A DNA stretch of 64,000 bases, taken from Trypanosoma brucei (lineage: Eukaryota). The stretch is from the NCBI GenBank assembly GCA_000002445.1, contig CM000207.1, positions 2,272,001 to 2,336,000 on the forward strand, read 5' to 3'. Position 1 is the first letter of the stretch. Each line of letters opens with the position of its first letter. The notes beneath the pieces are model-generated. The model was not told where the DNA came from. It searched no databases and was given only the letters and a program-made list of their open reading frames with translations. Position numbers and translations under genes: made by a program. Positions 1,263-60,221 of the stretch are shown piece by piece.

Positions 1263-1270
1263 TGCTATGC

Positions 1271-1364: not shown

Positions 1365-1395
<31 letters not shown>

Positions 1396-3971: not shown

Positions 3972-4057
3972 TTTTTATTTTTTTTATTTTTTTTATTTAT
4001 TTTTTTTGATTTTTTTTATTTGCTATGCTGACACACACACTCACACACACTCACTCA

Positions 4058-4092
<35 letters not shown>

Positions 4093-5353: not shown

Positions 5354-5443
5354 TTTTTATTTTTTTTATTTTTTTTATTTTATTTTTTTTGATTTTTTTT
5401 ATTTGCTATGCTGACACACACACTCACACACACTCACTCACTC

Positions 5444-7049: not shown

Positions 7050-8920
7050 CCGAAAATGAATATTTAGAAAAAATCAACTGTGGTCAAAACGACATAATGA
7101 CCACAAAAAATTGTCGCTACGCAGACTTTCGTAGCGCATTTGAAAGGGCTCGACCAGCCCAATGCATGAGTAACAACGGTTACTGCGACAAAGAGGTCAC
7201 AAAAAAATTAGGTGCTGCCGAACCTAAAATTTTTTCAAAAAATGGAAATTTTGAAAAAATTAACCGTGGTCAAAACGACATGACGACCACAAAAAATTGT
7301 CGCTACGCAGACTTTCGTAGCGCATTTGAAAGGGCTCGACCAGCCCAATGCATGAGTAACAACGGTTACTGCGACAAAGAGGTCACAAAAAAATTAGGTG
7401 CTGCCGAACCTAAAATTTTTTCAAAAAATGGAAATTTTGAAAAAATTAACCGTGGTCAAAACGACATGACGACCACAAAAAATTGTCGCTACGCAGACTT
7501 TCGTAGCGCATTTGAAAGGGCTCGACCAGCCCAATGCATGAGTAACAACGGTTACTGCGACAAAGAGGTCACAAAAAAATTAGGTGCTGTCGAACCTAAT
7601 ATTTTTTCAAAAAATGGAAATTTTGAAAAAATTAACCGTGGTCAAATCGACATGACGACCACAAAAAATTGTCGCTACGCAGACTTTCGTAGCGCATTTG
7701 AAAGGGCTCGACCAGCCCAATGCATGAGTAACAACGGTTACTGCGACAAAGAGGTCACAAAAAAATTAGGTGCTGCCGAACCTAAAATTTTTTCAAAAAA
7801 TGGAAATTTTGAAAAAATTAACCGTGGTCAAATCGACATGACGACCACAAAAAATTGTCGCTACGCAGACTTCCGTAGCGCATTTGAAAGGGCTCGACCA
7901 GCCCAATGCATGAGTAACAACGGTTACTGCGACAAAGAGGTCACAAAAAAATTAGGTGCTGTCGAACCTAATATTTTTTCAAAAAATGGAAATTTTGAAA
8001 AAATTAACCGTGGTCAAAACGACATGACGACCACAAAAAATTGTCGCTACGCAGACTTTCGTAGCGCATTTGAAAGGGCTCGACCAGCCCAATGCATGAG
8101 TAACAACGGTTACTGCGACAAAGAGGTCACAAAAAAATTAGGTGCTGTCGAACCTAATATTTTTTCAAAAAATGGAAATTTTGAAAAAATTAACCGTGGT
8201 CAAATCGACATGACGACCACAAAAAATTGTCGCTACGCAGACTTTCGTAGCGCATTTGAAAGGGCTCGACCAGCCCAATGCATGAGTAACAACGGTTACT
8301 GCGACAAAGAGGTCACAAAAAAATTAGGTGCTGTCGAACCTAATATTTTTTCAAAAAATGGAAATTTTGAAAAAATTAACCGTGGTCAAATCGACATGAC
8401 GACCACAAAAAATTGTCGCTACGAAGACTTCCGTAGCGCATTTGAAAGGGCTCGACCAGCCCAATGCATGAGTAACAACGGTTACTGCGACAAAGAGGTC
8501 ACAAAAAAATTAGGTGCTGTCGAACCTAATATTTTTTCAAAAAATGGAAATTTTGAAAAAATTAACCGTGGTCAAATCGACATGACGACCACAAAAAATT
8601 GTCGCTACGCAGACTTCCGTAGCGCATTTGAAAGGGCTCGACCAGCCCAATGCATGAGTAACAACGGTTACTGCGACAAAGAGGTCACAAAAAAATTAGG
8701 TGCTGTCGAACCTAATATTTTTTCAAAAAATGGAAATTTTGAAAAAATTAACCGTGGTCAAATCGACATGACGACCACAAAAAATTGTCGCTACGCAGAC
8801 TTCCGTAGCGCATTTGAAAGGGCTCGACCAGCCCAATGCATGAGTAACAACGGTTACTGCGACAAAGAGGTCACAAAAAAATTAGGTGCTGTCGAACCTA
8901 ATATTTTTTCAAAAAATGGA
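7050..8920 (+). repeat. 186-bp tandem satellite, about 10 copies, + orientation. The unit is ...AAAATTGTCGCTACGCAGACTTTCGTAGCGCATTTGAAAGGGCTCGACCAGCCCAATGCATGAGTAACAACGGTTACTGCGACAAAGAGGTCACAAAAAAATTAGGTGCTG(C/T)CGAACCTAA(A/T)ATTTTTTCAAAAAATGGAAATTTTGAAAAAATTAACCGTGGTCAAA(A/T)CGACATGACGACCAC
   Basis: The exact period is 186 bp; for example, GGTCAAAACGACAT occurs at 7082 and again at 7268. Each unit contains a perfect 7-bp stem hairpin, CGCTACG-N8-CGTAGCG. The six-frame ORF 6665..8971 is a periodic 62-aa repeat. Confidence 0.9.
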
Positions 8921-9149
8921 AACCATTTTTTTGCGACCAATTTTTATTTGAGCATTGCAATGGTCTATTGAAATTCGTGAAAATGCACTACTCGGATCTT
9001 CGTAGTGATCACTTTTTCGACCAGCTGCAATGTTGGAAATTTGCCTTTTTTCATCAATTTTTGATGTTTTCGGCTTTTTCCCCCTCTCTATATTTCTTGT
9101 TGCTTCGTTATGACAATAACCGTTGTTATTGCCTAATTCTACTCGTCCA
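8921..9149. repeat. Degenerate junction between the two oppositely oriented satellite blocks. It holds decayed + copies and then decayed - copies, and the orientation switches near 9050-9150.
   Basis: There is diverged + orientation unit-like sequence (TTCGTAGTGATCACTTTTTCGACCAGCTGCAATG) at about 8990-9040. There is diverged - orientation unit-like sequence (GCGCTACGGAAGTCTGCGTAGAAACCATG) at about 9160-9190. Confidence 0.7.
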
Positions 9150-11762
9150 TTCCGTGTAAATGCGCTACGGAAGTCTGCGTAGAAACCATGTTTATCGTTT
9201 TTGTCGGCCTGCGAAATTTGCTCTTTTTCTTTATTTTTTGAGCATTTTTCTTTTCCAACCGCCCCTATTTTTCTTATGACCTCTTTGTCGCAGTAACCGT
9301 TGTTACTCATGCATTGGGCTGGTCGAGCCCTTTCAAATGCGCTACGAAAGTCTGCGTAGCGACAATTTTTTGTGGTCGTCATGTCGATTTGACCACGGTT
9401 AATTTTTTCAAAATTTCCATTTTTTGAAAAAATATTAGGTTCGACAGCACCTAATTTTTTTGTGACCTCTTTGTCGCAGTAACCGTTGTTACTCATGCAT
9501 TGGGCTGGTCGAGCCCTTTCAAATGCGCTACGGAAGTCTGCGTAGCGACAATTTTTTGTGGTCGTCATGTCGATTTGACCACGGTTAATTTTTTCAAAAT
9601 TTCCATTTTTTGAAAAAATATTAGGTTCGACAGCACCTAATTTTTTTGTGACCTCTTTGTCGCAGTAACCGTTGTTACTCATGCATTGGGCTGGTCGAGC
9701 CCTTTCAAATGCGCTACGGAAGTCTTCGTAGCGACAATTTTTTGTGGTCGTCATGTCGTTTTGACCACGGTTAATTTTTTCAAAATTTCCATTTTTTGAA
9801 AAAATATTAGGTTCGACTGCACCTAATTTTTTTGTGACCTCTTTGTCGCAATAACCGTTGTTACTCATGCATTGGGCTGGTCGAGCCCTTTCAAATGCGC
9901 TACGGAAGTCTTCGTAGCGACAATTTTTTGTGGTCGTCATGTCGTTTTGACCACGGTTAATTTTTTCAAAATTTCCATTTTTTGAAAAAATATTAGGTTC
10001 GACAGCACCTAATTTTTTTGTGACCTCTTTGTCGCAATAACCGTTGTTACTCATGCATTGGGCTGGTCGAGCCCTTTCAAATGCGCTACGGAAGTCTGCG
10101 TAGCGACAATTTTTTGTGGTCGTCATGTCGTTTTGACCACGGTTAATTTTTTCAAAATTTCCATTTTTTGAAAAACTTTTAGGTTCGGCAGCACCTAATT
10201 TTTTTTGTGACCTCTTTGTCGCAATAACCGTTGTTACTCATGCATTGGGCTGGTCGAGCCCTTTCAAATGCGCTACGGAAGTCTGCGTAGCGACAATTTT
10301 TTGTGGTCGTCATGTCGATTTGACCACGGTTAATTTTTTCAAAATTTCCATTTTTTGAAAAAATATTAGGTTCGACAGCACCTAATTTTTTTGTGACCTC
10401 TTTGTCGCAGTAACCGTTGTTACTCATGCATTGGGCTGGTCGAGCCCTTTCAAATGCGCTACGGAAGTCTTCGTAGCGACAATTTTTTGTGGTCGTCATG
10501 TCGTTTTGACCACGGTTAATTTTTTCAAAATTTCCATTTTTTGAAAAAATATTAGGTTCGACTGCACCTAATTTTTTTGTGACCTCTTTGTCGCAATAAC
10601 CGTTGTTACTCATGCATTGGGCTGGTCGAGCCCTTTCAAATGCGCTACGGAAGTCTTCGTAGCGACAATTTTTTGTGGTCGTCATGTCGTTTTGACCACG
10701 GTTAATTTTTTCAAAATTTCCATTTTTTGAAAAAATATTAGGTTCGACAGCACCTAATTTTTTTGTGACCTCTTTGTCGCAGTAACCGTTGTTACTCATG
10801 CATTGGGCTGGTCGAGCCCTTTCAAATGCGCTACGGAAGTCTTCGTAGCGACAATTTTTTGTGGTCGTCATGTCGTTTTGACCACGGTTAATTTTTTCAA
10901 AATTTCCATTTTTTGAAAAAATATTAGGTTCGACTGCACCTAATTTTTTGGCGACCTCTTTGTCGCAATAACCGTTGTTACTCATGCATTGGGCTGGTCG
11001 AGCCCTTTCAAATGCGCTACGGAAGTCTGCGTAGCGACAATTTTTTGTGGTCGTCATGTCGATTTGACCACGGTTAATTTTTTCAAAATTTCCATTTTTT
11101 GAAAAAATATTAGGTTCGACAGCACCTAATTTTTTTGTGACCTCTTTGTCGCAGTAACCGTTGTTACTCATGCATTGGGCTGGTCGAGCCCTTTCAAATG
11201 CGCTACGAAAGTCTGCGTAGCGACAATTTTTTGTGGTCGTCATGTCGATTTGACCACGGTTAATTTTTTCAAAATTTCCATTTTTTGAAAAAATATTAGG
11301 TTCGACAGCACCTAATTTTTTTGTGACCTCTTTGTCGCAGTAACCGTTGTTACTCATGCATTGGGCTGGTCGAGCCCTTTCAAATGCGCTACGGAAGTCT
11401 GCGTAGCGACAATTTTTTGTGGTCGTCATGTCGATTTGACCACGGTTAATTTTTTCAAAATTTCCATTTTTTGAAAAAATATTAGGTTCGACAGCACCTA
11501 ATTTTTTTGTGACCTCTTTGTCGCAGTAACCGTTGTTACTCATGCATTGGGCTGGTCGAGCCCTTTCAAATGCGCTACGGAAGTCTTCGTAGCGACAATT
11601 TTTTGTGGTCGTCATGTCGTTTTGACCACGGTTAATTTTTTCAAAATTTCCATTTTTTGAAAAAATATTAGGTTCGACTGCACCTAATTTTTTGGCGACC
11701 TCTTTGTCGCAATAACCGTTGTTACTCATGCATTGGGCTGGTCGAGCCCTTTCAAATGCACT
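9150..11762 (-). repeat. The same 186-bp satellite, about 14 copies, inverted (- orientation). Together with the + block it forms a head-to-head, palindrome-like arrangement.
   Basis: The reverse complement of the unit is repeated with period 186. The minus-strand ORFs 8909..10126 and 10179..11729 translate to the same 62-aa periodic peptide as the + strand ORF. Confidence 0.9.
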
Positions 11763-35172: not shown

Positions 35173-35523
35173 GGTACTTGGCGCAACTTCCTGTCATGTG
35201 TTGCTCCAGGTGGAAGACACGCTCTGTAGTGAGCTAACCCGGGGCGGATCAGACGCGGTGCCGGCGTGACAATCCCACCTACTTTTTATTTTGATGGATA
35301 ATATTTTTTTCACCTTATTTGTCGGCTCTAACCCACACGGCTGCTGTAGTTTGTTTATGACAACGTGCCTTAGGATCCTTCCGGTACCTTGTACCTTTCC
35401 CTCGTACCTGAAATTGTTTCTCCGTCTTTCCCCCTGTTTTGGATCCATCTTCCTTTCACCTCGTTGACGTACTCACTCGTTAACGCACACATATATGAAT
35501 TCAGAAAGAGTCCCGAAACGAGG

Positions 35524-36450
35524 ATGACATTCGTTAAGGTTGTGAAGAACAAGGCGTACTACAAGCGGTTCCAGGTGAAGTACCGCCGCCGCCGCGAGGG
35601 GAAGACGGATTACCACGCACGCCGCCGCATGGTGCTGCAGGACAAGACAAAGTTCGGGACCCCGAAGTACCGTTTGGTGGTGCGCATCACGAACCGCGAC
35701 GTGATTGCCCAGATCGTCCACGCGAAGGTTGTTGGCGACGAGGTTGTAATGGCGGCTTACTCGCACGAACTGCCACTGTTCGGCATCGAGCACGGACTGA
35801 CAAACTACGCTGCTGCCTATGCCACTGGATTGTTGGTTGCCCGCCGCATGCTGGCGAAACTCGGACTCGCGGAAAAGTTTGTCGGCGTGAAGGAAGTGGA
35901 TGGTTCATACGCCGCTGTGCGCACGAAGGACGACGACCAGGGCGATGACGAGTCACGCTTCCCCTTCAAGGCGATCCTTGACGTGGGTCTGGCCCGCACA
36001 ACAACTGGCGCTCGCGTGTTCGGTGTGTTGAAGGGTGCTGTGGATGGTGGCCTCGCCGTACCTCACCGCCCCAATCGGTTCCCCGGTTACAACAAGGAGA
36101 GTGATGCGCTCAACGCAAAGGTACACCGCGATCGTATCTTCGGCCGCCACGTTGCGGATTATCTGAAGCAGGTGCGTGAGGAGGCAAGCTCAAACCCCGA
36201 CGAAAAGACTTGCCAGTTCTCCAAGTTTATCGCGGCAAAGGTTTCGCCCGACGACATGGAGGGCATGTACAAACGTGCGCATGCTGCCATCCGTGCTGAC
36301 CCAACGAAGCGACGTGCCAAGAAGGAGCGCCCCGCTGAGGCGAAACCGAAGAAGTACAACACGGTGAAGCTAACTGGTGCCGAGAAGAAGGCCGCAGCGA
36401 AAGCAAAGGTTGCCGCTGTGATTGAGCGCATCCGTGACCGTGCGAAGTAA
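35524..36450 (+). CDS. RPL5: 60S ribosomal protein L5 (uL18), copy 2, a tandem duplicate. The ORF track starts at 35389; the likely ATG is 35524.
   Basis: The protein is identical to copy 1. The coding sequence is near-identical: the only difference I confirmed is in codon 265, CAC versus CAT, and it is silent. The first 23 nt of the 3' flank are identical, then the flanks diverge. The 5' UTRs differ. Confidence 0.9.
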   Translation: MTFVKVVKNKAYYKRFQVKYRRRREGKTDYHARRRMVLQDKTKFGTPKYRLVVRITNRDVIAQIVHAKVVGDEVVMAAYSHELPLFGIEHGLTNYAAAYATGLLVARRMLAKLGLAEKFVGVKEVDGSYAAVRTKDDDQGDDESRFPFKAILDVGLARTTTGARVFGVLKGAVDGGLAVPHRPNRFPGYNKESDALNAKVHRDRIFGRHVADYLKQVREEASSNPDEKTCQFSKFIAAKVSPDDMEGMYKRAHAAIRADPTKRRAKKERPAEAKPKKYNTVKLTGAEKKAAAKAKVAAVIERIRDRAK

Positions 36451-43822: not shown

Positions 43823-45538
43823 ATGTTGCTCACCTACTTTTTGTTTTGTTTGTTTGTTTGTTCGTGTCAACCGTTGTTTCCTCGTATCAGCACGGCAACA
43901 GAGAGAATGGTTCGGTTTCAGCCATGGAGCATGGCCGTGCAAACTCGCTTTAAGTGGCGGCACAAGGAGACGGACCGCTGGCGGCGACTAATGGACGCGA
44001 CTTGTGTTCCCCTAGACTGGATCGGACAGACTCGGGGCCCATCCTTCACACAATACAGCGGGCACTGGACACATCTACTCACCTGCGCGCATGTCATCAC
44101 GCCATGGGACTATCCAAATTTTTATCCCCCGAAAGGCCCGACGCGGTTTGTGTCCCGCATAACCCTCGCTGACACCATGACACAGGTTCGCCTTGTTTCA
44201 CTGCAAGGTAACGCGGTTTACAAGCACTTCACTTCAAATCAACACGTGTTTGTGCACTCCAACCCACGACTTGATCTCTGCGTCTTACACCCCGAGCAGA
44301 ATCTGCGGCGCAGTGGAGAGATGAAGATGTTGTGGATGCAAAATGAAGGGCATGTTACGCGACCCCGCCTGGAGCTTGTAAAACCGCTGGAGGTGGGGGA
44401 TCATGTTTGGGTATATGGCATGACGGCCCATGAATCCCTTTTTGATGAGGAAGGAGGACCGGAACCCCTCATGATCCCAACGGGAATCCGAGCTCGCGTG
44501 CATGCCTTGACACGGGAACATTTCTTTATCGACACAAAGTCTATTGAAGGTGCTGAACGAGGGTGTGTGGGTATGGGAATGTGCGGCTCTGCTGTGATGC
44601 GTAATGGACGTTGTGTTGGGATGTTAACGGCAACTGTACATGAGGAAAGTGACTGTAAGGAGCTTGCTGGCACTGCCATGTGTACCTACGCCTCAGACAT
44701 CTTTGAGTTTCTACTGGAGGTAGAGCGACAGATGAAGGCATTACCCCCAAGTCTAAACCGCCAGGAGACCATGTTTCAGCAGCGTCGCCGCGGCGAGGGA
44801 TCGGAGGAATATGAGAAACAGCGTGAGACAGAAGGCAAGGAATGGGATTTGGACCATACGAGGCTGGCACGCCACATACCCGTACCCGTATCGCTGTGGC
44901 ATATGGAAGAGAAATGGATAACAGAGGAAGATTACATGACAAACAAAGTGTTCGGTCGTGGAGGGCCATTTAACCAGGAAACTCAGGAAAATATTCTTGG
45001 ATACGACATGAACTCGTCTAAATCATACGGGGAGCGGCCCGGGGATATCGCCTCCGTGTCTACTGCAACGCAAGACGGTAAACCAACAATGCAAGGCGAG
45101 CGGAAGGATTACAGCCCAACTGGAATCTACGCCGATCACGAAGACTTCAAGACAAGTGATGTGTGGGACTACAACGTCAGCTCGGAATTGCGGTCGCTCT
45201 TTGACAAGGGCGTTGACGCCAAAGATGCCCACAGTCTCAATATGATGCGCAAGTCACTCGAGAATATCCGTGCACAGCGTGCAATGGAAAAAATGAAAGA
45301 AACAGTAATGAAAGCCCCAGGTCACAGTGAAGACCCCCTCAATGTGGGAAGCATGGGTCGGTACGACGTCAATATGGAAGAAAGCAGTGCCCAGGCGTTC
45401 ACTCCAGACATGGATGATGAGGTACGGGCCGCAGCGCGAAAGGAAGAAAAGTACCATGAGGAGCTGCGGCGGCGGCATGGCAACAAAGCGCGGCCATTTG
45501 GTGACGAAGATCTGAGAGGATTGTGGGAACCTCATTAA
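43823..45538 (+). CDS. Trypsin-fold (clan PA) peptidase-like protein. The likely ATG is 43907 (MVRFQPW...).
   Basis: Triad-like motifs appear in the canonical order: LLTCAHVITPW (His), RLDLCVLHP (Asp), GMGMCGSAVMRNGRCVGMLTA (the GDSGG-like nucleophile box, with Cys or Ser as nucleophile). Confidence 0.5.
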   Translation: MLLTYFLFCLFVCSCQPLFPRISTATERMVRFQPWSMAVQTRFKWRHKETDRWRRLMDATCVPLDWIGQTRGPSFTQYSGHWTHLLTCAHVITPWDYPNFYPPKGPTRFVSRITLADTMTQVRLVSLQGNAVYKHFTSNQHVFVHSNPRLDLCVLHPEQNLRRSGEMKMLWMQNEGHVTRPRLELVKPLEVGDHVWVYGMTAHESLFDEEGGPEPLMIPTGIRARVHALTREHFFIDTKSIEGAERGCVGMGMCGSAVMRNGRCVGMLTATVHEESDCKELAGTAMCTYASDIFEFLLEVERQMKALPPSLNRQETMFQQRRRGEGSEEYEKQRETEGKEWDLDHTRLARHIPVPVSLWHMEEKWITEEDYMTNKVFGRGGPFNQETQENILGYDMNSSKSYGERPGDIASVSTATQDGKPTMQGERKDYSPTGIYADHEDFKTSDVWDYNVSSELRSLFDKGVDAKDAHSLNMMRKSLENIRAQRAMEKMKETVMKAPGHSEDPLNVGSMGRYDVNMEESSAQAFTPDMDDEVRAAARKEEKYHEELRRRHGNKARPFGDEDLRGLWEPH

Positions 45539-46111
45539 GGGATGATATTTCTGCGAGTGAGTAAGCAGAGGTATGGAAAAAGGAAAGGATTTGGCAGCCA
45601 CGGGGAAGAAAGCAAAAAAAAAAAACGGGTTACCGTTTAGGAAGTGGAGAACTCACTCGTGCGTGCCCTTATGCGAAGGGGACGGGGTGCCTCGTTTTTC
45701 ATGGGTCGCGCTGACGGCGTCCGCAAACATCGGGTGAAGCATCATCACTTCTCGCCCCCTCCTTTCCTTTTTCTTTTTCACTTAGTTGGCATTCCATTAT
45801 ACTACACGCTGTTGGGGGTTTGTCATCATTACACCACCATTCTTTGTGTACATTCTCGTTTAATATCGTTATTTGCCACTGAAGCGCACTCTTCCAAGTT
45901 CAGAGACACAGTTGGTAGTCATTTATACATCATACGTATATGTTATACATATTGCCCCTTACTGCGGGTTCGAAATGCCCCTGGTGTTGACCCTCTCCTT
46001 GACTCACTCTGTCCCGCGCATCTAAACATATGTGCATACAATATTAGGGTTGTGACACAGTAAGTTTGTTTTCTCTTTTAGTGAGAAGAAATTACCGCTC
46101 TTTCGCCGCTG

Positions 46112-49100
46112 GTGATGAATCCAAGTGCCCAGCCGTGGTATCCCCCGGCGGAGTTGGTGCTTGGCGCACCGACGGCTGGCTTAACGGCGGTGCGTTGGCA
46201 AAACGATCCGTACCGTTCACGAATAGCCAGGTGTCCGCCTCCGCCGCTTTGCGGTGACGATGATTTCATTTCGTTGCGAATCGAGTCCCTTGTGCCGGTG
46301 GCAGGGACCAAAACGGATTCACCGATTCCAGCTGCTTTGACAGCAGCAGCAGCGGCCGCAGTGTTGCCGACAGCGGTGCAGGTGCCCGTGACTAAAGGTC
46401 AACCATACCGCAGCAGCGGAGTCACTTTCGCAAGTGTACCCACGCAGGCGGAGGCACGCCTTCAGAAGCGATCACAACCAGTAAGTCGTTGCCAGGCAGA
46501 TCTAAAACCCTTGTGGCGCAGCTTCGCCACCGTGTCGTCTCTGGACTCTCAAGGCGATTCTCAAGAAATCGAAGGCGCCACAACAGAGGAAAAATGCTGC
46601 GCTGCACGTGTTCGGCCTGCAAGGCCCAAGGTGCCAATCCCGCGTCCTCGATCGCAGCTTAATGCGGACAACGCTTTTGCAGCCGCCCGCAACCTCAACA
46701 AAACGGTGTTGGCGGGTAGTTTAGATATCAACCCGCACACGCCAGCATCGACACCTAATGACTCGAGCCCCGACCAAACCTCCGAAACCCCTGCCGTCTC
46801 TGCGAGTGGGACAGACACCACAACTACCGACGGTGAAAATAATACATGCACGACCTCTTCTCCCACAGACGTTGGTGCATCAACAGGCCGCAACAACACT
46901 TGCTCGGAGGATGCCGAAGAGCCCAGCTGCGAAGTCATCAGCGTGAAGAGCACGGCCCAGGAAGCAGATGTTGACGAGAAGCCGCAATGTCTGGCGAACC
47001 GCGCGCCACCGGGCCCAACCGCATCCAAAAAGACACGATTGAAGCCAAAGTCTGAGAAGTGGACAATCGTCGGGGGTAAGGCAGGAGTGGCACTCGCTTC
47101 CGTGCAGGCGGCAGTAGTGCCAGCGAAGAGGCCAACTGCGTCGATTGCCAGCACGAAGGCACGTGAGAGCGTGTCGCGTCACCGTACTCCGGATCCAAAA
47201 GCAAAAGAGCGCGTTAGGTCCAAGCAGCGGCAGTCGCAAGCCCAGCATAGGGAGGAAGTCAACAAATGTAGCAGCAAAGATGATGTCATCATCGAGCAAA
47301 AGTCGAAACGACAGCGGGATTCGCGGCGCCCGCGTGAGTGCTGGACTGATGAGGAACTTCTTGAAACCCTAATGAGTAGCACCACAATCTCTGCTCAGAC
47401 GGGTGCATCCTCCAGTGGTAACAGTGGTGATGGTGCCGCGTCATTTGCCATTATGGGTGTCCCACTCGTTTGCGTTACACGAGGTGAGGAACTTCTCACG
47501 TCGCAGTCCTCGTCGCGGAGCGACGCGCGGCAGCGAAATGCACTTCGTTTGTTCATTCGTTCCCTCGCTATGTTTGAAACGTCCAACGCCAAGACACTGC
47601 TGCTGCAGCGTGCGCTAAATGGGCTGCCAGAGTCCTGCCATCACCAGTGCCCATCACTCGTTTGCGCTATCATGTTGGAAATGAGTGCAAGCTGTGTGGA
47701 TGTGGAAAAAAGCCTCCAAACGTGCTATAAGGCATTGAGGCTGTCGGAGAGGCACAATTTAGACACGTTTGAAATGTTGTCGCGACTCGGCATTACGCGC
47801 ACCCTTGCTCGGGTCGTTGACACAATGGATGCGCGGGAGAATTTAACACGAGCGGCACTGATTGCGATTGACCGCCTCGAAAAAGAGGCGCTCGGATGGA
47901 TTGTGATGCAAATGGGTGTCACGCTGGAGATATCAGGACTTTTCCCTGACTCACTTGCTTGGTATGAGGTTGCTGAGCGCCTTGCTCGGTCTACTGGGCA
48001 GCAGAGACTTCTTTGTGAAGTACACTGCTGTCAGAGCATCGCCTACTCGGCAGTAGGAGAGCTGGAGCGCGCACAGCAGGCTTACGAGGCTTCACGGTTA
48101 TTACTTTCCAACATTCATCGGCACTGCCATCAACGACCATTGCAGAACTATGCTCAACTGAAGTGTCAGCTCGGTGATATGGCGGGCGCGCTGCAGTTGC
48201 AGGAGGAGGAACTAGCTATCGCCAAGGAGCTGGGTGATACGCATGCCGCGTCGCGTTGTGTCGGCGCTATTGCATTAACAAAGCGGTTTCTTGGTCGCTA
48301 TGACGAAGCGGCAGAGAATTACATGGAGGAGTTTAGCGTGCATTGTTCCCGCGACCCGCGGCAGGCGGTGGAATCGCTTACCGGCGCGGCATCCTGCTGG
48401 CGATTTGGCGGTCACGCGCAGAAAGCGTATGATTACTGTATCCGAGCCCTCACTCAAGCCCGTGACTGTCATGACCTCACTACCATCGCCAAAGCGCTCG
48501 CAGAGTTGGCAGAGACGGAGCTAAGCATGGACAGACTAGATGAAGCACAAGAACATCTGCGCGAGGCTCTCACCGCAGTATTCCGCGTGGACGATGCAGA
48601 GCAGAAGCAGTATCTTGTGAAGGCCGCGCTTTGTGAAGTGGAGTGGCGTTGTTGCAGTGCATTGGGCCAAGTGTACGCGCGCCGTGGTCAAGCATTTGAG
48701 GCCATGCAGTGTGCTGACCGCTGTCACGTGCCGAACACGGTACACATGGGGCGATTGCTGTTGCGGCGTCAGCGGTGCGCTGGAGCCATACATGACGCCA
48801 CCAACCCTGAACTAGTCAGCAGGCAAAGTGTCGAACGGGTGCTCAAACATCCCACATTGAAAGGTTGGAATGTAGTCTGCTATTCACTTCCGTGGGCTGA
48901 GAAACTCGATTTTATGGTGTATGTGGTCATGCTGGACGCCGACAGCGGTGAGCTGAAGTGCGTGGCTCATCCGCTTGTCATGAGTGACGAGTTGGTGGCC
49001 TTTTTCTCTGGTCCTAATGCCTTGTGGGACTTATTGGATGCTCCCATGTTCACTGACACCGGGGACCGCATGTATGGCGATACACCGCTATGGCCGCAGC

Positions 49101-50251
49101 TGTACTCAAAGGTGGCATTTGACTTCCAGCAGAACCCAAGCAATGCGGAATGTCTTGTGTCGCTTCGTACGGATCCGCACTATTGCCTTCGTTTACTTTA
49201 TGACAATTTTGTGCGGCCACTGGAAGCGGACGTTGCCGGAGCAGAAGGGCTGATGTTTGTCGCTGACGGCGTCTTCAGCCGAATTCCGTTTCATGCCCTT
49301 CACGATGGGAAGAAGTACCTCGCAGAGCGCTTTTGCACGAGCACTTGCTGCTCCATGGCGCTACTCTGCACGCACGCCGTGGAGGATGAAAGCATAAAAG
49401 CCGCAGTGACTCCACCTGCAAAAGCAACAGATGGTGGCAGCGAGGAATCCATGGGGGGGATGATTCCCAAACGTTACACCATAGTTGATGATGCCTCTCA
49501 TAAGGTGGTGTTAATGGATTCCTTTGTTGAGGAGATGGTGGCTAAAAGCAATGACAGTTCTAATCCTGTTGGAGTGTGCGTCCGTCACTGGGTGGTTGAT
49601 GAAAAGCAACCTGTGATTTCTTGCGTGGCGAACGAGCAGCAACTCATCGATGCGGCGTCATCAAGTGACAACTCCAAAGATGGAAACGGCGATATCAGTG
49701 CGGAGGCGGCGGGAAATGATGATCCCGACGTGTCTGCCACAAAGCACCTGCTGTCGTGCTTGCGGCGCCGTGGCAATGTCACTTCAGTACGTAACTCCCT
49801 CTACCGAGCCGTGCATGAGAACCCCGAGGGCGTGTTGGAGTTGCGCCTTCGTGTCGTGCCGGAGGTTAAGGAGGATTATTGCGGAACTTTTGTTGGTGCC
49901 TCATGCGATGTCTCCGCCAGCCACGCCAGTGAAGTGGCCAGCTCATGGGAGTTGCGAGGTTACGCACTTGTTTTATGTAGTGGCATCGGGACCTACGGAG
50001 GATTATCCATGCATGAGACGGGAGTGCCGGTGTATCGAGCACTTCAGTATGCGGGAGCTCGCTGCATGTTGTTGGCAGCTGGCAGTCGAGTGCCGCCATA
50101 TGTTAAAGTTCCCGCTGCTGCTGCAGATGCGGCGCTGAATGGGCGGAGTGTTGCCGCAGCGCTGCGTGAGGCATATGTTCGAGCGATTGCGGCGGATGTA
50201 CCGTTGGAGGATTGGTGCGGGTTTGCGCTGGTGGGCCTGCCGATCTCGTGA
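46112..50251 (+). CDS. Large (about 1379 aa) TPR-repeat protein with a C-terminal CHAT (caspase-fold, HetF-associated with TPRs) domain.
   Basis: The central region contains TPR-like helical repeats (AYDYCIRALTQARDCHDLTTIAKALAELAE...LDEAQEHLREAL). The C-terminus reads LMFVADGVFSRIPFHALHDGKKYLAERF...SASHASEVASSWELRGYALVLCSGIGTYGGLSMHETGVPVYRALQYAGARCMLLAAGSRVPP...ALREAYV. This matches the CHAT pattern (L.h.PdG.L..lPFeAL....yL...........HfatHg......L........LVvLSAC.T........G..gL.rAfl.AGa..v.asLW.v.D). Confidence 0.55.
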   Translation: MMNPSAQPWYPPAELVLGAPTAGLTAVRWQNDPYRSRIARCPPPPLCGDDDFISLRIESLVPVAGTKTDSPIPAALTAAAAAAVLPTAVQVPVTKGQPYRSSGVTFASVPTQAEARLQKRSQPVSRCQADLKPLWRSFATVSSLDSQGDSQEIEGATTEEKCCAARVRPARPKVPIPRPRSQLNADNAFAAARNLNKTVLAGSLDINPHTPASTPNDSSPDQTSETPAVSASGTDTTTTDGENNTCTTSSPTDVGASTGRNNTCSEDAEEPSCEVISVKSTAQEADVDEKPQCLANRAPPGPTASKKTRLKPKSEKWTIVGGKAGVALASVQAAVVPAKRPTASIASTKARESVSRHRTPDPKAKERVRSKQRQSQAQHREEVNKCSSKDDVIIEQKSKRQRDSRRPRECWTDEELLETLMSSTTISAQTGASSSGNSGDGAASFAIMGVPLVCVTRGEELLTSQSSSRSDARQRNALRLFIRSLAMFETSNAKTLLLQRALNGLPESCHHQCPSLVCAIMLEMSASCVDVEKSLQTCYKALRLSERHNLDTFEMLSRLGITRTLARVVDTMDARENLTRAALIAIDRLEKEALGWIVMQMGVTLEISGLFPDSLAWYEVAERLARSTGQQRLLCEVHCCQSIAYSAVGELERAQQAYEASRLLLSNIHRHCHQRPLQNYAQLKCQLGDMAGALQLQEEELAIAKELGDTHAASRCVGAIALTKRFLGRYDEAAENYMEEFSVHCSRDPRQAVESLTGAASCWRFGGHAQKAYDYCIRALTQARDCHDLTTIAKALAELAETELSMDRLDEAQEHLREALTAVFRVDDAEQKQYLVKAALCEVEWRCCSALGQVYARRGQAFEAMQCADRCHVPNTVHMGRLLLRRQRCAGAIHDATNPELVSRQSVERVLKHPTLKGWNVVCYSLPWAEKLDFMVYVVMLDADSGELKCVAHPLVMSDELVAFFSGPNALWDLLDAPMFTDTGDRMYGDTPLWPQLYSKVAFDFQQNPSNAECLVSLRTDPHYCLRLLYDNFVRPLEADVAGAEGLMFVADGVFSRIPFHALHDGKKYLAERFCTSTCCSMALLCTHAVEDESIKAAVTPPAKATDGGSEESMGGMIPKRYTIVDDASHKVVLMDSFVEEMVAKSNDSSNPVGVCVRHWVVDEKQPVISCVANEQQLIDAASSSDNSKDGNGDISAEAAGNDDPDVSATKHLLSCLRRRGNVTSVRNSLYRAVHENPEGVLELRLRVVPEVKEDYCGTFVGASCDVSASHASEVASSWELRGYALVLCSGIGTYGGLSMHETGVPVYRALQYAGARCMLLAAGSRVPPYVKVPAAAADAALNGRSVAAALREAYVRAIAADVPLEDWCGFALVGLPIS

Positions 50252-50299
50252 TATTGCGGGAAATGTGTGATCGATCATATAAGGCGCCGAGTATTCACA

Positions 50300-53200
50300 A
50301 AATTATGCCGATTGTCTTCCATGTGGTGAACCAATCCCTGAAAGGAAGATGTAGAAGGAAAGAAAAAGAAAAAATAAAATAAAAGGAATGCGCACGGTGT
50401 ATATATGAGTATGTGTATGAATATGCTTTTATTCTTATTTATTTATCATCATCTTTTTTTTTACTGTTATTATTTTATATTTCTCTGCTACGTTCTTTTT
50501 TTTTTGTTATTGTTATCATTCCTACCATTATTATTATTATTATTACCATTATCACTATTACGATTAATACGTTTTTTTTTGTTTTCTTTAGGAAATTTGT
50601 TACGTCAGTCCATTTGTTTACTTAATTTTTTCCTTATTTTTTTTCTTTCCTTCATTCTGAAAGAGAAAAAAAAGGAGAGAAACGATGATTTTTCTTTTTC
50701 GATATGCTTGTTTTTTATTTTATTTTATTTTTCCTCCGAGATTTGTGGACATCAGCGTTATTAACTCACCATGTAGTTAAGGAAAGTAAAGTTAGGTATT
50801 TAAGGGAAATGAATGAGTGATGCATGAAGAAGTTATTTTTAAAATAAAAAGATATATATATATATATATATATAAACAAAATTTAAAAAAAAAAGATGAC
50901 GGAAAAGGCATATGCGTATGTGAAAGTGTATCGGTATTGGTATTGGTGGTTTGGGAAAAAATAATGAGTGGTGAAAACAACGGCAACATTTGAAAATAAA
51001 ATGAACAAAAACTGAGGTATATATATATATATTTATTTATTTAGCCGTCTGTATGTGTGTGTGTGTGTCTGCGTGTGTTTTTATTTATTTATTTATTACC
51101 TTAAATTTTATTCATTTTTTTCTCTTTCTTTATTTCTTTCTCACCGTCTCCACCATTTTCCTCAGCATATGTTTTTCTGATGTTATTTTTGTGTATTTTT
51201 GATTGCTTTGTTTTACCATCTCTTTTTTCTTTTCTTTTCCTTTTTTCCTTTTTTTGGTTTTTTTGTTTTTTATGTTTCGTTTTTTTTTTAATATTATTTT
51301 ATATTATAAGTTTTGTTAATCAACTTTTATCGAACAGTGTCGATGAGTCGGTAAGAGTTGATTGAGGTGTGCAGGTAGTCCCTCCCCCCTCCAAAAAAAA
51401 AAATTTTTAATTCGAAACACACGCCACCGCACGGAACGGAAAAGTGAATAATAAAAAAAAAAGGAAAAAAGGAAAAGAAAAGAAAAGGAAAACATATTAA
51501 TCAATGAAACAAAAAAAAGGGGGAAATAATAATAGTAACGATGATAGTAAAATAATAAGAATAACACATATATGTTTGTAGTTGTATGAATGGATGTGTA
51601 ATGAGCGGTTACAATACGGACATCAATGAAACAAACAAACAAACAAGAAGGAAAGAGGGAGAAATTAATGTACACATGTGTGTGAGCATATGTTAATGGA
51701 AAGAACAGGAAGGCACAACTGTGAAACTCAAAGTATGAAAAGCAAAAAAAAAAAAAGAAAAAATTGCGGCTACCGAATGATTCATATAATTTCTTTTCTT
51801 TCTCTTCTTTTTATTGTTGATGACGTAAAAAGCGTACATATGTTTTCCTGTTTCTACCACTGAAAAATGCAACACACGAACACACACGCACATGTATAAA
51901 AACATATTGGATTTATTGCTTATTCACTTTATTTATTTAGTAATTTATATGGAAGGAAACATAACTTCGGGAGTTTGATAGTGAAGAGGAGAAGGAAGGA
52001 GAAACAATTCGTGATGATTTATTTATTATTTTTTTTACAAAATAAAAGCGGTTATTAATTCTTTTTTCCCCTTTTCCTTTCTTTCTTTCTTTATTTTTTT
52101 TTCCTTTCCTTTCGTCGTTGTTGCTGTTTCCTTTTTTCATTTTTCCCAAAACTTCCTCCCCGACTATTCTTACGCGAATACAAAAATGCAAACATCTTTA
52201 TTTTATTTTTAATGTTTTTTTTTCCTTTTCTTTACGTCGTCATTATTATCATTATTATTATTACACATGCACACACATGTTCATTTCCGTTGTTTTTGCC
52301 GTTTGTTTGTTTATTTATTTGTCGTTTTATTTTTATTTTTGCTCTCGCGTTTGTGATTTTGTTTTGTTTGTTTGCCTTTATTTTGATATTATTACTTTAT
52401 ATATATTTATATATTTATATATATATATATATTATCATATATGAAAATATATGTGTTTTACTTCCGTCGCTGCTGCAGAGGTCCATTTTGTTTCTCTCAC
52501 AACTGTATATTTAAATTAAATAAATATATATATATATATAAATATATGTAAATATATAAATAAATATAAATATATATATATATATTTCCAATGAAATGTA
52601 AGAAGGGAAAGGGAGGAGGAGGAGGAGGGGGGAAGGGGGAAAGGGGAGAAAAAATAGAGAGAAATTATAAAAAAGAGTTTAAAAAACCAAATAAATCAAA
52701 TCAAATCAAATTAAATCAAATCAATAAATAATTAAACGTGTGGGCACAAGTATGTATGAAATAAAATACAATGAACCGATTTGGTATGATTTTATTTGAA
52801 CTGAAGGTGCAACACAGAGGAAGAATTATAAAGTTTTCGGAGGGGAAAAAAAAAATAGAAATAAAAGGAAAGAAAGAAATGCACACATATACATGCATGC
52901 GCATATGCCCTCGAACGAAACAGGGAAAAAAAAATCGAAAGTGTAAATGAAAATTAAAATGACAGTTGTGACGAACTGATCATATGAATGAAAGCACGCG
53001 TATTTTTTTTCCCCCCTTTTCTTTTCTGATGTGCGTGTTTTTGTGTGCATAATTTTTTTGTTTGTTTATTTTTGTTTTATTTGTTGCCTTATGTTACGCA
53101 GGAAAGAATGAAAGGAAAATAATATAGTTATAAAATAAATAATGAAATGAAATGAAATGAAGTGAAGTGACACAATATGATACTATGAAATTATGTGGGA

Positions 53201-53880
53201 GAAAAATAAAAAAAAGTATATATGAAAGATGAGGGAATCGATATTTTGAATCGTGTGCACAAAAAAAAACGCAAGACAAACAGGTAATAGTAACAGTAAT
53301 AATAACTTAAGTACCTGCATGCATACATATATTTATATATAATTTGTATGAATATATATATATAATATGTATTTGTGTATGCGTGTGTTCTAACGGTGTA
53401 AGCTGTGCGGTCAAAAAGATATGACAAAGAAAACAAAAGAAGATTTTTTTTTAAAAAAAAAGAAAGCAATGCAATATAAAAGCAGAAAGAGCCACTGATA
53501 CTCTTCTGTACATGTGGGCGGCTGAAGGTACACTCCGTTCCTATTTTCCTCTTCTTAAAATGTTGTATTTTTATTATATTTGTGTTAACATTTGCTTGTG
53601 TCCACGCTGGTGTTGCTGTTGATTCTTTCCCTTTCCCTTTTTCTTATTTCTTTTTTTTTCTTTCTAATTTTGAACCTTGTGTCCGTCACTTCTTTACATC
53701 AACCCTTCGAAATATGAGAACAACGTAAGCGAAGGCAAGTGAAGAAAGGAGTAAGTGGAAGTGGAAGTGGAAGTGGGCAAAAGGGAGGAAATAAGCGCAG
53801 GCACAAAAGCACCAAAAGAAGAAAACAAATAAACAAAAAAAAAGAAAGGTGTTAAAACACTTGTCACTCACCTTCCACAA
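50300..53880. repeat. An AT-rich, low-complexity intergenic region of about 3.6 kb, packed with heterogeneous microsatellites: poly-T/poly-A, (TA)n, (TTTA)n, (GT)n, (ATTATT)n, AAATCAAATCAAATCA, (GAAGTG)n, (GGAGGA)n.
   Basis: This can be read directly from the sequence. No ORF longer than 120 aa is present. Both flanking genes are on the + strand. Confidence 0.8.
53620..53700 (+). promoter_or_regulatory. Polypyrimidine tract upstream of the Utp6-like gene. It is the presumptive trans-splicing and polyadenylation-coupling signal.
   Basis: CTTTCCCTTTCCCTTTTTCTTATTTCTTTTTTTTTCTTTCT lies about 200 nt upstream of the ATG at 53883. Kinetoplastid SL addition uses such tracts. Confidence 0.45.
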
Positions 53881-53882
53881 CA

Positions 53883-56576
53883 ATGGCGCGAGCAACTGCT
53901 ATTGAGACACGGTTGGAGAAGCTCCTCCCCGCAATGGAGGAGTACTTCACCAGTGGTTTCCTCACACGCGAAGAAACTCACGAGGTGGCGCGGCAGCGGT
54001 CGCATTGGGAATATCGCCTCGTGGCAAAACCGTTACTTCTGCTGGACGTGCGAAGTGCAGCCCGCTACGAGTTGGAGTTGGAGGAGCGGCTCCGTCAGTA
54101 TTGTGTCGCAACAAAACTTGTGCTCCGCCACCGCTGGTCCATAATTGAACGTGTGGAGTACATTTATCGAATTGGCCTGCGCCACATAAAAGATCCCGAT
54201 GAATGGGAACTCCTAAGACGAGAGTACGTGTCGGTTCTCAAAAAACACCGCAGACATGGTCAGTTGTCTGCGTTATATGGCGAATTGATGGTACGTTTCC
54301 CAACCCGTAGCGCGCTGTGGGTGGAAGCTGCCCTATACGAAGGTGTGGAGGCGGAAAACGCAAGCAACGCACGGGCTCTCGTGCAACAAGCGGTGCTGAC
54401 ATCTGGCGCACAGCCCGAAGTGTGGAATGCAGCTGTTGTGGTGGAATTATACTTTACAGACCGGCTTCTAAAGAAACTTCTCGAGGATAAAGAAGAGGAA
54501 AAGGGAAAAGAGCATCAACAGAAGCAGAAGCAGCAGGTAGGGGACGAGGGAGGAGGGCATGACATCGTGACGGAGCTCAAGTTGGAAAATGCTGCACTCG
54601 CTGAAGTTGTGGTGGATTTAGCGCTTGTCCACGCCGTTGTGGAGGAGGCACTGGACAGTCCCGCTTTTGGTCCAAAGCTTGTCCGTATGCTGGTAGATAG
54701 TGTGACACGGTTCTGTTACACTAAACCCGTGTTAGAACGCCTCATGGAACTTGCCGCCAAAAAGATGGTCGCCATATTGAGCCCCGTCATGGCTAATAGC
54801 ATCGGTAACAGTAGTAGTGCTCAACTCAATGCATCGTCGTCGGGTACGGCTCGGCAGTGGACGGAGGTGGGCATCTCTCATTTCTTGGAAGATTACTTAG
54901 CACTCGAGGCCATTATGGCCGAAAAAGGAGTTGCGGGTGATGCGGCTTCTCTGCTGCGATCCAATGGCCGCACGCCGAGTGTGGGTCGAGAAGATTGGAA
55001 GGTGTCATGCATCGCCTCTCTCGTCTCCTCGCTGACGCTTCTCTACACTGATGAAGTGAGGTTTCCCATCGTCTCGCGTTTGCATTCCGGTGCCGTTTCT
55101 GTAGTGGAAAACTTAATGGAACGTCTGCAGCAACTTGGTTGCGCTGATGCGGTTTCTGCCGCTTGTCGGTGCCTCCTCCTGTCAACTCAGCAGCGGCAGC
55201 ACAAGGGGAAGAAGTCAGAAGCCGATGCTCGCGAAGAGAGTATAGCTCTCATTAATGAGGTGTTGAGCTGCTTATGGAAGGAAGTGAAGGGCTCAAAGAA
55301 GAAGCAAAAGAATCAAACGCATGACGCGGCAGTGGAACGGGTAGTAGCGATGCTAACGGGTGGTGCAGCCAAAGATGCCGTTCCTTCGGCAAAGAAGGCC
55401 ATGAAACGACCGCGACCTGAAGACCCCGCACACGTGTGGCGGCCGCTTTCTCGCTTTTTACTTCCGGAAGATCGCGCAGCGGTCCGCAGTGCGAGTGACG
55501 GAGTAATGCAGCACTGTACTAGCGCCGAGGTCGATCTTCTCTTTAGCCTCCATGACAGGGATAACGAGACGGATGCCGAGGTCGTTGGTCACGCCGTTGT
55601 GGAGTTCCTGCAGAGGTTTGAACTTATCCCCCCCACTGCCGGAGTGAAGGATGTGCGGCAGCTGAGTTTTACTGAGGGCCGAACCCCCATCGTTCTGTGG
55701 AAGATGTTTCTTCTTCTAGAGAGGTGCTGTGCTCAAGCAATTGTGGATTCGTTGCCGCGACGGTCAAAACCGCAGTCCTCCACAACACGAGGCAGTACAG
55801 GTGATAGTGACAGTGATAGTGATAGTGACAAGAAGGACAGGCTGCAGCAGGACAAAGACAGCGCCACCATGGATGTTAGTTTCGCGGCCGCTGGTTTGAG
55901 GTTTCTCGCTGGTGTGCCGTGCGGTGTGTTGCCAAGTATTGCCGTTGAAGAAGAGCGACTGAAGGGTTGTTGGACGCTGGTCACTGCTCGCGTTCACACT
56001 TTGACCGGACTGGAGTCTACCACGCGCGACAATTTTGTTTCCCGTCTTCGTCATCCCCCAACGGATGGCGCTGTCGCTAGTGATAACCAACCTGCTTGGG
56101 TGAATGGGCTGAGATCCATTCTTAGTGTATCCCGTCTTTGTCATCCTCTTCCTCGTCAGGTCTATGCCGACATCGCTGTTCCCTTCTTCGAGGCTCTTGC
56201 CTTATGGGCCCAAAAACAACAAAAGCCCCATAGCGACGTTAACGCCGCCGTGCAGGAGGCGCGGGATGCTCACACGTGCGTATTAGCGATGTACACGCAG
56301 TCTCGTAACCTCGCAAATTACATGCCATTGGTGTACCGTCTGCATCCACCAAACCGTAACAGCAACAACAACAGTGATGAAGATGATGGGTCCCGTGGCA
56401 GTACGGTTAGCAGTCGAGTTTCGGCAACGGAGCTCAACGCAGCTGACTGGGCTCGGTGTATTGCATTTGAACGAGATGTGGCGAAGGACTTACGGCGAGC
56501 GAAGGAGGTGTCGGGACGGGCGCGAAGGGAGACACTGGCGCCACAACATCTACTTCTCATGTTGAATAAATACTAA
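53883..56576 (+). CDS. UTP6: U3 snoRNP / SSU-processome protein Utp6-like (HAT-repeat protein). The C-terminal region is unusually long.
   Basis: The N-terminus MARATAIETRLEKLLPAMEEYFTSGFLTREETHEVARQRSHWEYRL parallels Utp6 (MAE.VQQRLE..LPELE.LE.KG.F.R.EI..I.K.R..FEYRL). ALWVEAALYE is HAT-repeat-like. There is an SD-dipeptide run (DSDSDSDSD) at about 55800. Confidence 0.6.
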   Translation: MARATAIETRLEKLLPAMEEYFTSGFLTREETHEVARQRSHWEYRLVAKPLLLLDVRSAARYELELEERLRQYCVATKLVLRHRWSIIERVEYIYRIGLRHIKDPDEWELLRREYVSVLKKHRRHGQLSALYGELMVRFPTRSALWVEAALYEGVEAENASNARALVQQAVLTSGAQPEVWNAAVVVELYFTDRLLKKLLEDKEEEKGKEHQQKQKQQVGDEGGGHDIVTELKLENAALAEVVVDLALVHAVVEEALDSPAFGPKLVRMLVDSVTRFCYTKPVLERLMELAAKKMVAILSPVMANSIGNSSSAQLNASSSGTARQWTEVGISHFLEDYLALEAIMAEKGVAGDAASLLRSNGRTPSVGREDWKVSCIASLVSSLTLLYTDEVRFPIVSRLHSGAVSVVENLMERLQQLGCADAVSAACRCLLLSTQQRQHKGKKSEADAREESIALINEVLSCLWKEVKGSKKKQKNQTHDAAVERVVAMLTGGAAKDAVPSAKKAMKRPRPEDPAHVWRPLSRFLLPEDRAAVRSASDGVMQHCTSAEVDLLFSLHDRDNETDAEVVGHAVVEFLQRFELIPPTAGVKDVRQLSFTEGRTPIVLWKMFLLLERCCAQAIVDSLPRRSKPQSSTTRGSTGDSDSDSDSDKKDRLQQDKDSATMDVSFAAAGLRFLAGVPCGVLPSIAVEEERLKGCWTLVTARVHTLTGLESTTRDNFVSRLRHPPTDGAVASDNQPAWVNGLRSILSVSRLCHPLPRQVYADIAVPFFEALALWAQKQQKPHSDVNAAVQEARDAHTCVLAMYTQSRNLANYMPLVYRLHPPNRNSNNNSDEDDGSRGSTVSSRVSATELNAADWARCIAFERDVAKDLRRAKEVSGRARRETLAPQHLLLMLNKY

Positions 56577-59468: not shown

Positions 59469-60221
59469 ATGAAGCTTAACATCGCTTACCCACGCAACGG
59501 TACTGTGAAGCAGTTTGAGGTGGCCGATGAGGTCCTCCGCCGCGTAAATCTTGGGGACTACCGCCTTGGCAACGAGGTGGACGGCGTCATCTTTGGCGAA
59601 CCCTTCAAGGGTTATACCTTTAAACTGCAGGGCGGATCTGACAAGGAGGGTTTTCCCATGGTGCAAGGTGTTATGGCCCCAAGTCGTGTCTCTCTCCTTG
59701 TGAAGCGTGGTGCTGTTGGCTTCAACACTTTCCGTGGTTATCAGGGTGAGCGTCGCCGCAAGTCCCTTAGAGGATGCATCCTCGCCTCCGATATTGCCGT
59801 GCTGAACGTTATTGTCGTACGTGTTGGAGAGCAGCCAATCGAAGGTGTGACGGATGTGTCCGTGCCGCGTCGCCTCGGTCCGAAGCGGGCAAACAAAATC
59901 CGTAAGCTCTTTAACCTCGGTCGCACGGATGACGTACGCAAGTATGTGATTCGCCGCAAGGTGACAAAAGAGGGCAAGAAGGACCGCTTCAAGGCACCCA
60001 AGATCCAACGCCTCATCACCTCCACGATTAGGGCGCGCCGTGCTAAAAAGGTGCGTGTCGCCATTGAGAAGGTGCGCAAGTCGGCAGCTGAGCGTCGTGA
60101 GTACCTCCGTCTCGTTGGTGCTCGCCGCCGTGCCGCCCGCCAGCGTAAGGCGGCACGTCATCACTTGACGAGAGTAAATGCTCAGAAAAAGGAGGTTGCC
60201 GCCTTCAAGGCACGGAAATGA
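59469..60221 (+). CDS. RPS6: 40S ribosomal protein S6 (eS6).
   Basis: MKLNIAYPRNGTVKQFEVADEVLRRVNLGDYRLGNEVDGVIFGEPFKGYTFKLQGGSDKEGFPM is the canonical eS6 N-terminus. There is a basic C-terminal tail. Confidence 0.9.
   Translation: MKLNIAYPRNGTVKQFEVADEVLRRVNLGDYRLGNEVDGVIFGEPFKGYTFKLQGGSDKEGFPMVQGVMAPSRVSLLVKRGAVGFNTFRGYQGERRRKSLRGCILASDIAVLNVIVVRVGEQPIEGVTDVSVPRRLGPKRANKIRKLFNLGRTDDVRKYVIRRKVTKEGKKDRFKAPKIQRLITSTIRARRAKKVRVAIEKVRKSAAERREYLRLVGARRRAARQRKAARHHLTRVNAQKKEVAAFKARK

Follow-up and report, generated by a model that had tools for sequence, protein, structure and literature searches.

A kinetoplastid TPR-CHAT protein of Trypanosoma brucei without the canonical catalytic dyad, probably a pseudoprotease

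Separase is an active protease with an intact catalytic dyad, and Trypanosoma brucei presumably has a separase gene separate from the one described here. Among eukaryotic proteins that join tetratricopeptide repeats (TPRs) to a CHAT domain, TTC28/TPRBK is conserved across metazoans, and corals carry hundreds of TPR-CHAT copies (PMC12314368, PMC9145168). The present study concerns a TPR-CHAT gene within 64,000 nucleotides of T. brucei DNA (assembly GCA_000002445.1, contig CM000207.1, positions 2,272,001 to 2,336,000 of the forward strand), the whole of which is referred to as the window and numbered from its first letter. An earlier note on this DNA, made from the sequence alone, had correctly named a trypanosome as the host organism. 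In view of the metazoan and coral proteins, its remark that eukaryotic CHAT proteins are uncommon was overstated. It had proposed a regulated protease or pseudoprotease whose catalytic dyad would be the His of SASHAS and the Cys of LVLCSG. On balance, we favour a kinetoplastid-wide scaffold, consisting of a disordered N-terminus with docking motifs, a TPR array and a CHAT fold lacking the dyad, which would be docked on messenger ribonucleoproteins (mRNPs).

Analyses of the catalytic positions were based on canonical CHAT domains, whose catalytic His stands in H-x-A-x-H-G and whose catalytic Cys stands in L-S-A-C-x-T; both were present in 117 of 119 aligned sequences, and each, taken singly, in 117 of 120 canonical matches. 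When a profile bearing these motifs was aligned to the solved Csx29 proteins, they fell on ILCHGE and LGACET, which we take to contain the catalytic residues of Csx29. The T. brucei protein and 12 relatives, a subfamily of 13 members in all, were aligned by hhalign to 120 canonical CHAT domains (probability 97.9-98.6%). In this alignment Val1248 (49856..49858, on the + strand, as is the whole gene) occupied the canonical catalytic His column; Arg1244 fell on the first His, Pro1249 on the Gly and Asp1254 on the conserved Asp. Two global hhalign runs with smaller sub-alignments set Glu1238, not Val1248, at this column. A His was placed there in no hhalign run and in none of the 12 relatives with the region. 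The column of the canonical catalytic Cys was occupied by Ile1291 (49985..49987) in hmmsearch, in MAFFT and in 12 of 12 hhalign runs, with Ser1289, Gly1290 and Thr1293 matching the Ser, Ala and Thr of L-S-A-C-x-T; MAFFT set Phe, not Ile, at this column in two prokinetoplastid-type rows. In the predicted structure, Ile1291 lies at the end of the strand formed by residues 1283-1292, which is the site where the catalytic cysteines of the caspase-like fold sit, and Cys1288 lies mid-strand. The canonical dyad was thus absent from T. brucei and from all 12 relatives, including the deep-branching Prokinetoplastina. From these alignments we judge that canonical catalysis has probably been lost and that a pseudoprotease, the fallback offered in the earlier note, describes the protein better than a protease working through the dyad named there.

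The depth of this loss was indicated by P0054, the protein of Apiculatamorpha spiralis (Prokinetoplastina), which lacks the dyad, as do two further relatives (P0032 and P0040). All three were at first taken for proteins of non-kinetoplastid eukaryotes and were reassigned as prokinetoplastid-type on the basis of taxonomy and gene organisation; P0040 is encoded on a 743-kb contig where genes are tightly packed on the same strand, as in kinetoplastids. Because members from the Prokinetoplastina also lack the dyad, it would have been lost before the known kinetoplastid lineages diverged. In every subfamily member with a Pfam CHAT match, that match covered only about the first 80-90 profile positions, corresponding to the non-catalytic first quarter. 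Synteny shows P0010 to be a true orthologue of the T. brucei protein: the upstream neighbours of the two genes, that of P0010 lying on contig L001, share 60% identity. A profile search with a 10-sequence full-length alignment retrieved only four Trypanosoma proteins and bacterial TPR proteins, missing P0009 and P0010, and neither a Trypanosoma-only profile nor a profile of the catalytic half of the subfamily matched a solved structure by sequence. One kinetoplastid-type member, P0016, is filed in EukProt under the alveolate predator Colponema vietnamica (transcriptome); we suspect that it may be contamination from bodonid prey rather than a Colponema protein.

Around the former active site the subfamily has retained residues of its own. 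After the His strand, KEDYCG (residues 1252-1257, 49868..49885) stands in place of the canonical F-R-x-D-N-P loop; it follows the subfamily signature [RKL]E[DE][YF]xG, and its E1253 and G1257 were invariant in 10 full-length relatives. His1300-Glu1301 (50012..50017), in the loop after the Cys strand, was invariant in 13 of 13 subfamily members. Together with W1278, these invariant residues (E1253, G1257, H1300 and E1301) sit in the loops after the former His and Cys strands. Early loss of the dyad, combined with invariance of the loop residues flanking the old cleft, points to a pseudoprotease that has kept a putative binding cleft. Since the dyad has been missing across kinetoplastids from an early divergence, the protein does not appear worth pursuing as a protease or a drug-target peptidase.

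The CHAT fold itself is confirmed. The earlier note had assigned the C-terminal 300 residues to a CHAT domain; the assignment stood, and the extent did not, as the caspase-like, CHAT/separase-like region spans about residues 900-1378 (48812..50248, about 480 residues). It includes a weakly conserved insert of about 130 residues (approximately 1094-1225), within which residues 1174-1199 are disordered. The Pfam check proposed in the earlier note gave scores above cutoff for both domains. The sole Pfam CHAT match (PF12770, of the caspase-haemoglobinase fold in clan CD) scored 39.3 bits where the cutoff is 24 (E 6.9e-10); it covered residues 1024-1092 (49184..49390), or positions 3-74 of the 289 in the profile. 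When the C-terminal 509 residues of four Trypanosoma orthologues were used in an exhaustive HMMER search, 615 proteins were identified at E <= 0.001. Most were typical CHAT proteins aligning in two separate stretches, which indicated that the CHAT domain is split by the insert. An AlphaFold2 model of residues 900-1378, built from a 36-sequence alignment, had a predicted local distance difference test score (pLDDT) of 84.2 and a predicted template modelling score of 0.86. Its CHAT/caspase-like fold, which the earlier note had suggested looking for in this way, matched solved CHAT domains in three dimensions; an earlier AlphaFold run on four sequences (pLDDT 39) was discarded. The C-terminal CHAT motifs were also present, with A1313-G1314-A1315 aligning to A-G-A and W1367...G1374 to W-A-x-F-x-L-x-G.

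Upstream of this fold lies a TPR-type helical repeat region of about residues 470-880 (47522..48754), with Pfam and Protein Data Bank (PDB) matches over residues 573-836 and outer bounds inferred from the most conserved block of the orthologue alignment. TPRs in the middle of the protein had been predicted in the earlier note and were borne out by Pfam TPR_12, which scored 44.4 bits where the cutoff is 30.1 (E 1.9e-11). Pfam found TPRs in three stretches, with TPR_MalT and TPR_2 also matching, and a PDB sequence search gave LGN/GPSM2/Pins-type TPR matches over residues 650-836 (E about 2e-8). An NCBIfam scan yielded TPR matches below threshold only. The remaining N-terminal region (residues 1-460, 46115..47494) is of low complexity and probably disordered. 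Its Ser/Thr/Ala/Pro content is 42%, compared with 26-28% in the rest of the protein, in agreement with the earlier description of this third as rich in these residues. No Pfam match was found in residues 1-460. Invariant columns in the orthologue alignment made up 4-29% per 100-residue block over residues 1-400, versus 60-67% in the TPR region, and the N-terminal region holds islands of conserved short motifs.

The reading frame of the gene is uninterrupted on the + strand, as first reported for 46112-50251. The GTG at 46112 in the list of open reading frames (ORFs) is an artefact of bacterial-code ORF calling, and the coding sequence runs from the ATG at 46115 to 50251 (1378 residues and a stop). 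Doubt had been expressed over this start, and our results did not bear that doubt out. Inspection of the sequence showed a polypyrimidine tract at 46065-46079, an AG at 46080-46081 that is a likely trans-splice acceptor, an in-frame TGA stop at 46082-46084 and no in-frame ATG between that stop and 46115. The first 10 residues were kept in every full-length orthologue. The upstream stop, the lack of an intervening ATG, the polypyrimidine-AG and the conserved first residues together make the start at 46115 secure. The annotated start of the T. cruzi orthologue (P0002) lies 17 residues upstream of the conserved MLNPGARPWYP and is probably over-extended, since in the other species the motif is at the initiator Met or at most two residues from it.

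The protein is identical over its full length (100%) to T. brucei brucei TREU927 XP_827671.1 / EAN77341.1 / UniProt Q38CX9. Its gene lies between RPL5 (35389-36450) and RPS6 (59469-60221), for which the published identifiers are Tb927.9.15110/15150 and Tb927.9.15360, respectively, and from this position it is almost certainly Tb927.9.15290. UniRef names Q38CX9 a 'CHAT domain-containing protein', NCBI records of T. equiperdum and T. vivax are named alike, and published tables list Tb927.9.15290 as 'CHAT domain-containing protein, putative'. The TPR and CHAT assignment is, therefore, already in public annotation and is not new; what our analysis adds is modest detail on an already annotated, ordinary protein. 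No functional study of Tb927.9.15290 was found in the searchable literature.

Among the conserved N-terminal islands is the extreme N-terminus, where the first ten residues, MNPSAQPWYP (46115..46144), form a PAM2w-like motif; its Met, Ala, Trp and final Pro take consensus positions 3, 7, 10 and 12, respectively. In 6 of 6 full-length kinetoplastid orthologues the pattern [ML]N[PVIA]xAx[PE][FW]xP was present a single time, inside the first 20 residues, and it occurred nowhere else in the retrieved protein set (chance expectation 3e-5 per protein). The six sequences follow [ML]-N-[PVI]-x-A-x-P-W-Y-P, with MNVEAKPWYP in P0009 and MNIDAKPWYP in P0010. A second motif, WQNDPYRS (residues 28-35, 46196..46219), is a putative MKT1 site, as it fits the MKT1-interaction consensus (H/N)(D/E/N/Q)PY, which often follows (Y/W/T)(R/T/Q) (PMC3985637). 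Q29-N30-D31-P32-Y33 was invariant in four Trypanosoma species, with the counterparts RRHDPYRS in P0009, RRNDPYRS in P0010 and RRHDPYRT in the prokinetoplastid P0054. A second PYRS (residues 97-100, 46403..46414) was likewise invariant in Trypanosoma (P97-Y98-R99-S100), and PYR[ST] recurred in P0009, P0010 and P0054. As this second PYRS is also conserved, the true unit could be PYR(S/T), with another partner. Two further conserved islands, SSL(D/E)SQGDSQ(E/D) and IP(R/L)PRS, were observed at residues 141-150 and 175-180 (window 46550-46660 and 46630-46660), the latter as VAIPLPRSRR in P0009 and P0010.

Published data associate the protein with mRNA. Tb927.9.15290 was recovered in ultraviolet-crosslinked oligo(dT) captures of poly(A)+ mRNA in two studies (false discovery rate 0.01 in that of Lueong). 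In a PRMT1 knockout its mRNA association fell to 0.6, alongside that of eIF4G5, G5-IP and RBP35, and G5-IP and RBP35 are listed as PAM2-containing (PMC11754739). The protein has been seen in proteomic data of T. brucei and T. vivax, its abundance is lowered by benzoxaborole treatment, and its mRNA is a reported RBP10 target.

Based on the motifs and the captures, we speculate that the PAM2w-like motif may bring the protein to mRNPs via the MLLE domain of poly(A)-binding protein (PABP) or via poly(A). The N-terminal peptide MNPSAQPWYPPA would be the ligand of the TbPABP1/2 MLLE domains or of poly(A), and the NDPY motif would perhaps add recruitment via MKT1. The dead CHAT cleft and the TPR array are both plausible peptide-binding modules, and together they could hold a client protein. 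Taken as a whole, a TPR-CHAT mRNP adaptor already dead before Prokinetoplastina and Metakinetoplastina separated, with PAM2w on PABP or poly(A), (H/N)DPY on MKT1 and a client held by cleft and TPRs, is a possibility that we regard as doubtful. The adaptor role in general is a tentative lead and not a result. Even so, the conserved PAM2w-like and NDPY motifs, with the presence of the protein in mRNA-bound proteomes, offer a more useful lead than the protease idea. Gene expression in trypanosomes is controlled mainly post-transcriptionally (PMC4055773), and a PABP- or MKT1-linked scaffold would for that reason be of interest to the field. If true, an mRNP adaptor of this kind would add a new class to the post-transcriptional regulators, one based on a protease fold.

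Two other interpretations would leave the protein active, and both make use of Cys1288 (49976..49978) in LVLCSG (residues 1285-1290, 49967-49984). That of the earlier note, a regulated CHAT protease in which Cys1288 is paired with His1270 (49922..49924) in SASHAS (residues 1267-1272, 49913-49930), is very improbable. T. brucei does have both residues in the caspase-like lobe, the His about 18 residues ahead of the Cys, but neither stands at a catalytic column, and the canonical His-to-Cys spacing is about 40-42 residues. His1270 occupies an unconserved, non-catalytic column as the last residue of the model strand 1266-1270, directly before the helix (1271-1277) that precedes the Cys strand. 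Examination of the kinetoplastid orthologues, the check that had been suggested, showed both residues to be replaced in several relatives; at position 1270, T. cruzi and T. rangeli have Gln, and most other relatives have Ser or Thr. The other interpretation, an active cysteine protease with a rebuilt centre of Cys1288 and the invariant His1300, perhaps with Glu1253 or Glu1301, regulated by its TPRs as in bacterial TPR-CHAT enzymes, also seems improbable, if less so. The invariant His1300-Glu1301, E1253 and G1257 do flank the old active-site strands, and Cys1288 was kept in 8 of the 12 relatives aligning without gaps (four Trypanosoma species, P0009 and three prokinetoplastid-type proteins). 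However, the syntenic orthologue P0010 has Ala in its place, P0013 has Ser, P0014 Thr and P0016 Leu, and the fragment P0011 has an insertion at this site. His1300-Glu1301 was kept even in the members without Cys1288, so the invariance of this pair is independent of the cysteine. Moreover, every alignment method set Cys1288 three residues before the catalytic column, and we know of no clan CD peptidase with its His downstream of its Cys. An initial assignment, which put the catalytic His at Arg1246 and took Cys1288 as catalytic by spacing, was backed in neither part by profile-profile alignment.

Several considerations weigh against a docked, dyad-less scaffold, some of them concerning the active site and others the link to mRNPs. 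The catalytic mapping was derived from profile alignments and the secondary structure of the model. A gapless count from Val1248 to Cys1288 gives 40 residues, as in a typical canonical CHAT sequence, which also speaks for a rebuilt centre. A small chance of a shift in the Cys-column register therefore persists, as does one of a rebuilt active site given Cys1288 in 8 of 12 relatives and the invariant His1300-Glu1301. With respect to the motifs, the Pfam PAM2 model did not match any of four N-terminal peptides, so that membership of the PAM2 family is putative, and the text of a published proteome-wide T. cruzi PAM2 search does not name the protein. Table 4 of the MKT1 interactor paper (PMC3985637), which gives selected partners, does not include it, nor do the supplements of the tethering screen. 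Oligo(dT) capture alone does not show a direct or specific mRNP function, and a literature search found no localisation or knock-down data for Tb927.9.15290. The gene likewise does not occur in the eIF4F interactome paper, and in the supplements of the variant surface glycoprotein mRNP paper it appears only as an RNA-seq row. A further alternative is that the protein is the kinetoplastid counterpart of TTC28/TPRBK- or CFAP46-type scaffolds of the cytoskeleton, division or flagellum, its recovery with mRNA being incidental and its N-terminal motifs serving other partners. TTC28/TPRBK and the coral TPR-CHAT proteins likewise have a TPR array followed by a single C-terminal CHAT domain (PMC12314368, PMC9145168), and the T. 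brucei TPRs are of the TPR_12/LGN type, as in TTC28/TPRBK-type proteins. However, TTC28 has far more TPRs and no PAM2-like N-terminus has been described for it. FAP46/CFAP46 of the ciliary central apparatus (PDB 7n6g, 9ijj) shares a CHAT-like fold and was solved as a structural component, but no match at the sequence level was detected between it and the T. brucei protein, and it is axonemal, whereas the latter was captured with mRNA. We consider such a counterpart unlikely, though less so than a rebuilt protease, and continue to favour the mRNP-docked scaffold.

The genes around the TPR-CHAT gene encode a UBX protein, a UTP6-like protein, RPS6 and RPL5; these are housekeeping genes with no CRISPR or defence context. 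The upstream neighbour (ORF 43823-45538, + strand, 571 residues) had no Pfam match at E <= 0.001. Its true start is probably Met29, at about nt 43907, the residue matching the first residue of the counterpart gene on L001. It carries TCAHV, DLCVL and GMCGS and resembles a chymotrypsin-fold peptidase with a Cys nucleophile. Downstream, a 3.6-kb AT-rich stretch (50252-53882, GC content 31-33%) separates the TPR-CHAT gene from the UTP6-like gene (53883-56576). It contains four + strand copies, at 50635, 52027, 52092 and 53001, of UA(U)6, presumably the motif recognised by RBP10. These copies agree with the reported binding of RBP10 to the TPR-CHAT mRNA (bioRxiv 10.1101/2024.03.11.584402). Further away in the window, triplets of the octamer TATTTTTT recurred every 1.36-1.40 kb over 1218-5388 (at 1218, 2580, 3976 and 5358), a spacing that indicates a tandem array with units of about 1.4 kb. 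Over 7600-11667 the same octamer occurred every 186 bp, on the + strand at 7972-8909 and then on the - strand at 9427-11667, indicating two opposed arrays of 186-bp (62-codon) repeats. These arrays sit inside ORFs 6665-8971 (+), 8909-10126 (-) and 10179-11729 (-).

Comparison with solved TPR-CHAT proteases sets the T. brucei protein apart from enzymes of this class. The Csx29 proteases of the type III-E CRISPR Craspase (PDB 7y9x, 7y85, 8d9f, 7zoq) share its combination of domains, whereas the T. brucei protein has Val and Ile at the catalytic columns and adds a 460-residue disordered N-terminus with short motifs and a 130-residue insert inside the fold. Its location on a eukaryotic chromosome among housekeeping neighbours, with no gRAMP/Cas7-11 or CRISPR context, indicates that it is not a Craspase component. 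Similarity to separase (PDB 5u1t, 9hma, 5fc2) was marginal at the sequence level (E about 0.02, with a broad profile only), and the lack of a His/Cys dyad shows that it is not separase. At the other end of the protein, a parallel to MNPSAQPWYP is MNPNATEFMP, the crystallographically validated PAM2 of Leishmania eIF4E4 (pattern hydrophobic-(P/V)-A-F-P). The variant with Trp at position 10, PAM2w, is reportedly confined to LARP4/4B and binds either the MLLE domain or poly(A). Compared with PAM2, the T. brucei motif lacks positions 1-2 and begins at the initiator Met, and it is a candidate match at the level of sequence. In PAM2/PAM2w as in MNPSAQPWYP, position 3 is hydrophobic, positions 4-5 are Asn-Pro/Val, position 7 is Ala, position 10 is aromatic and position 12 is Pro, and they share a setting within a disordered region of an mRNA-associated protein.

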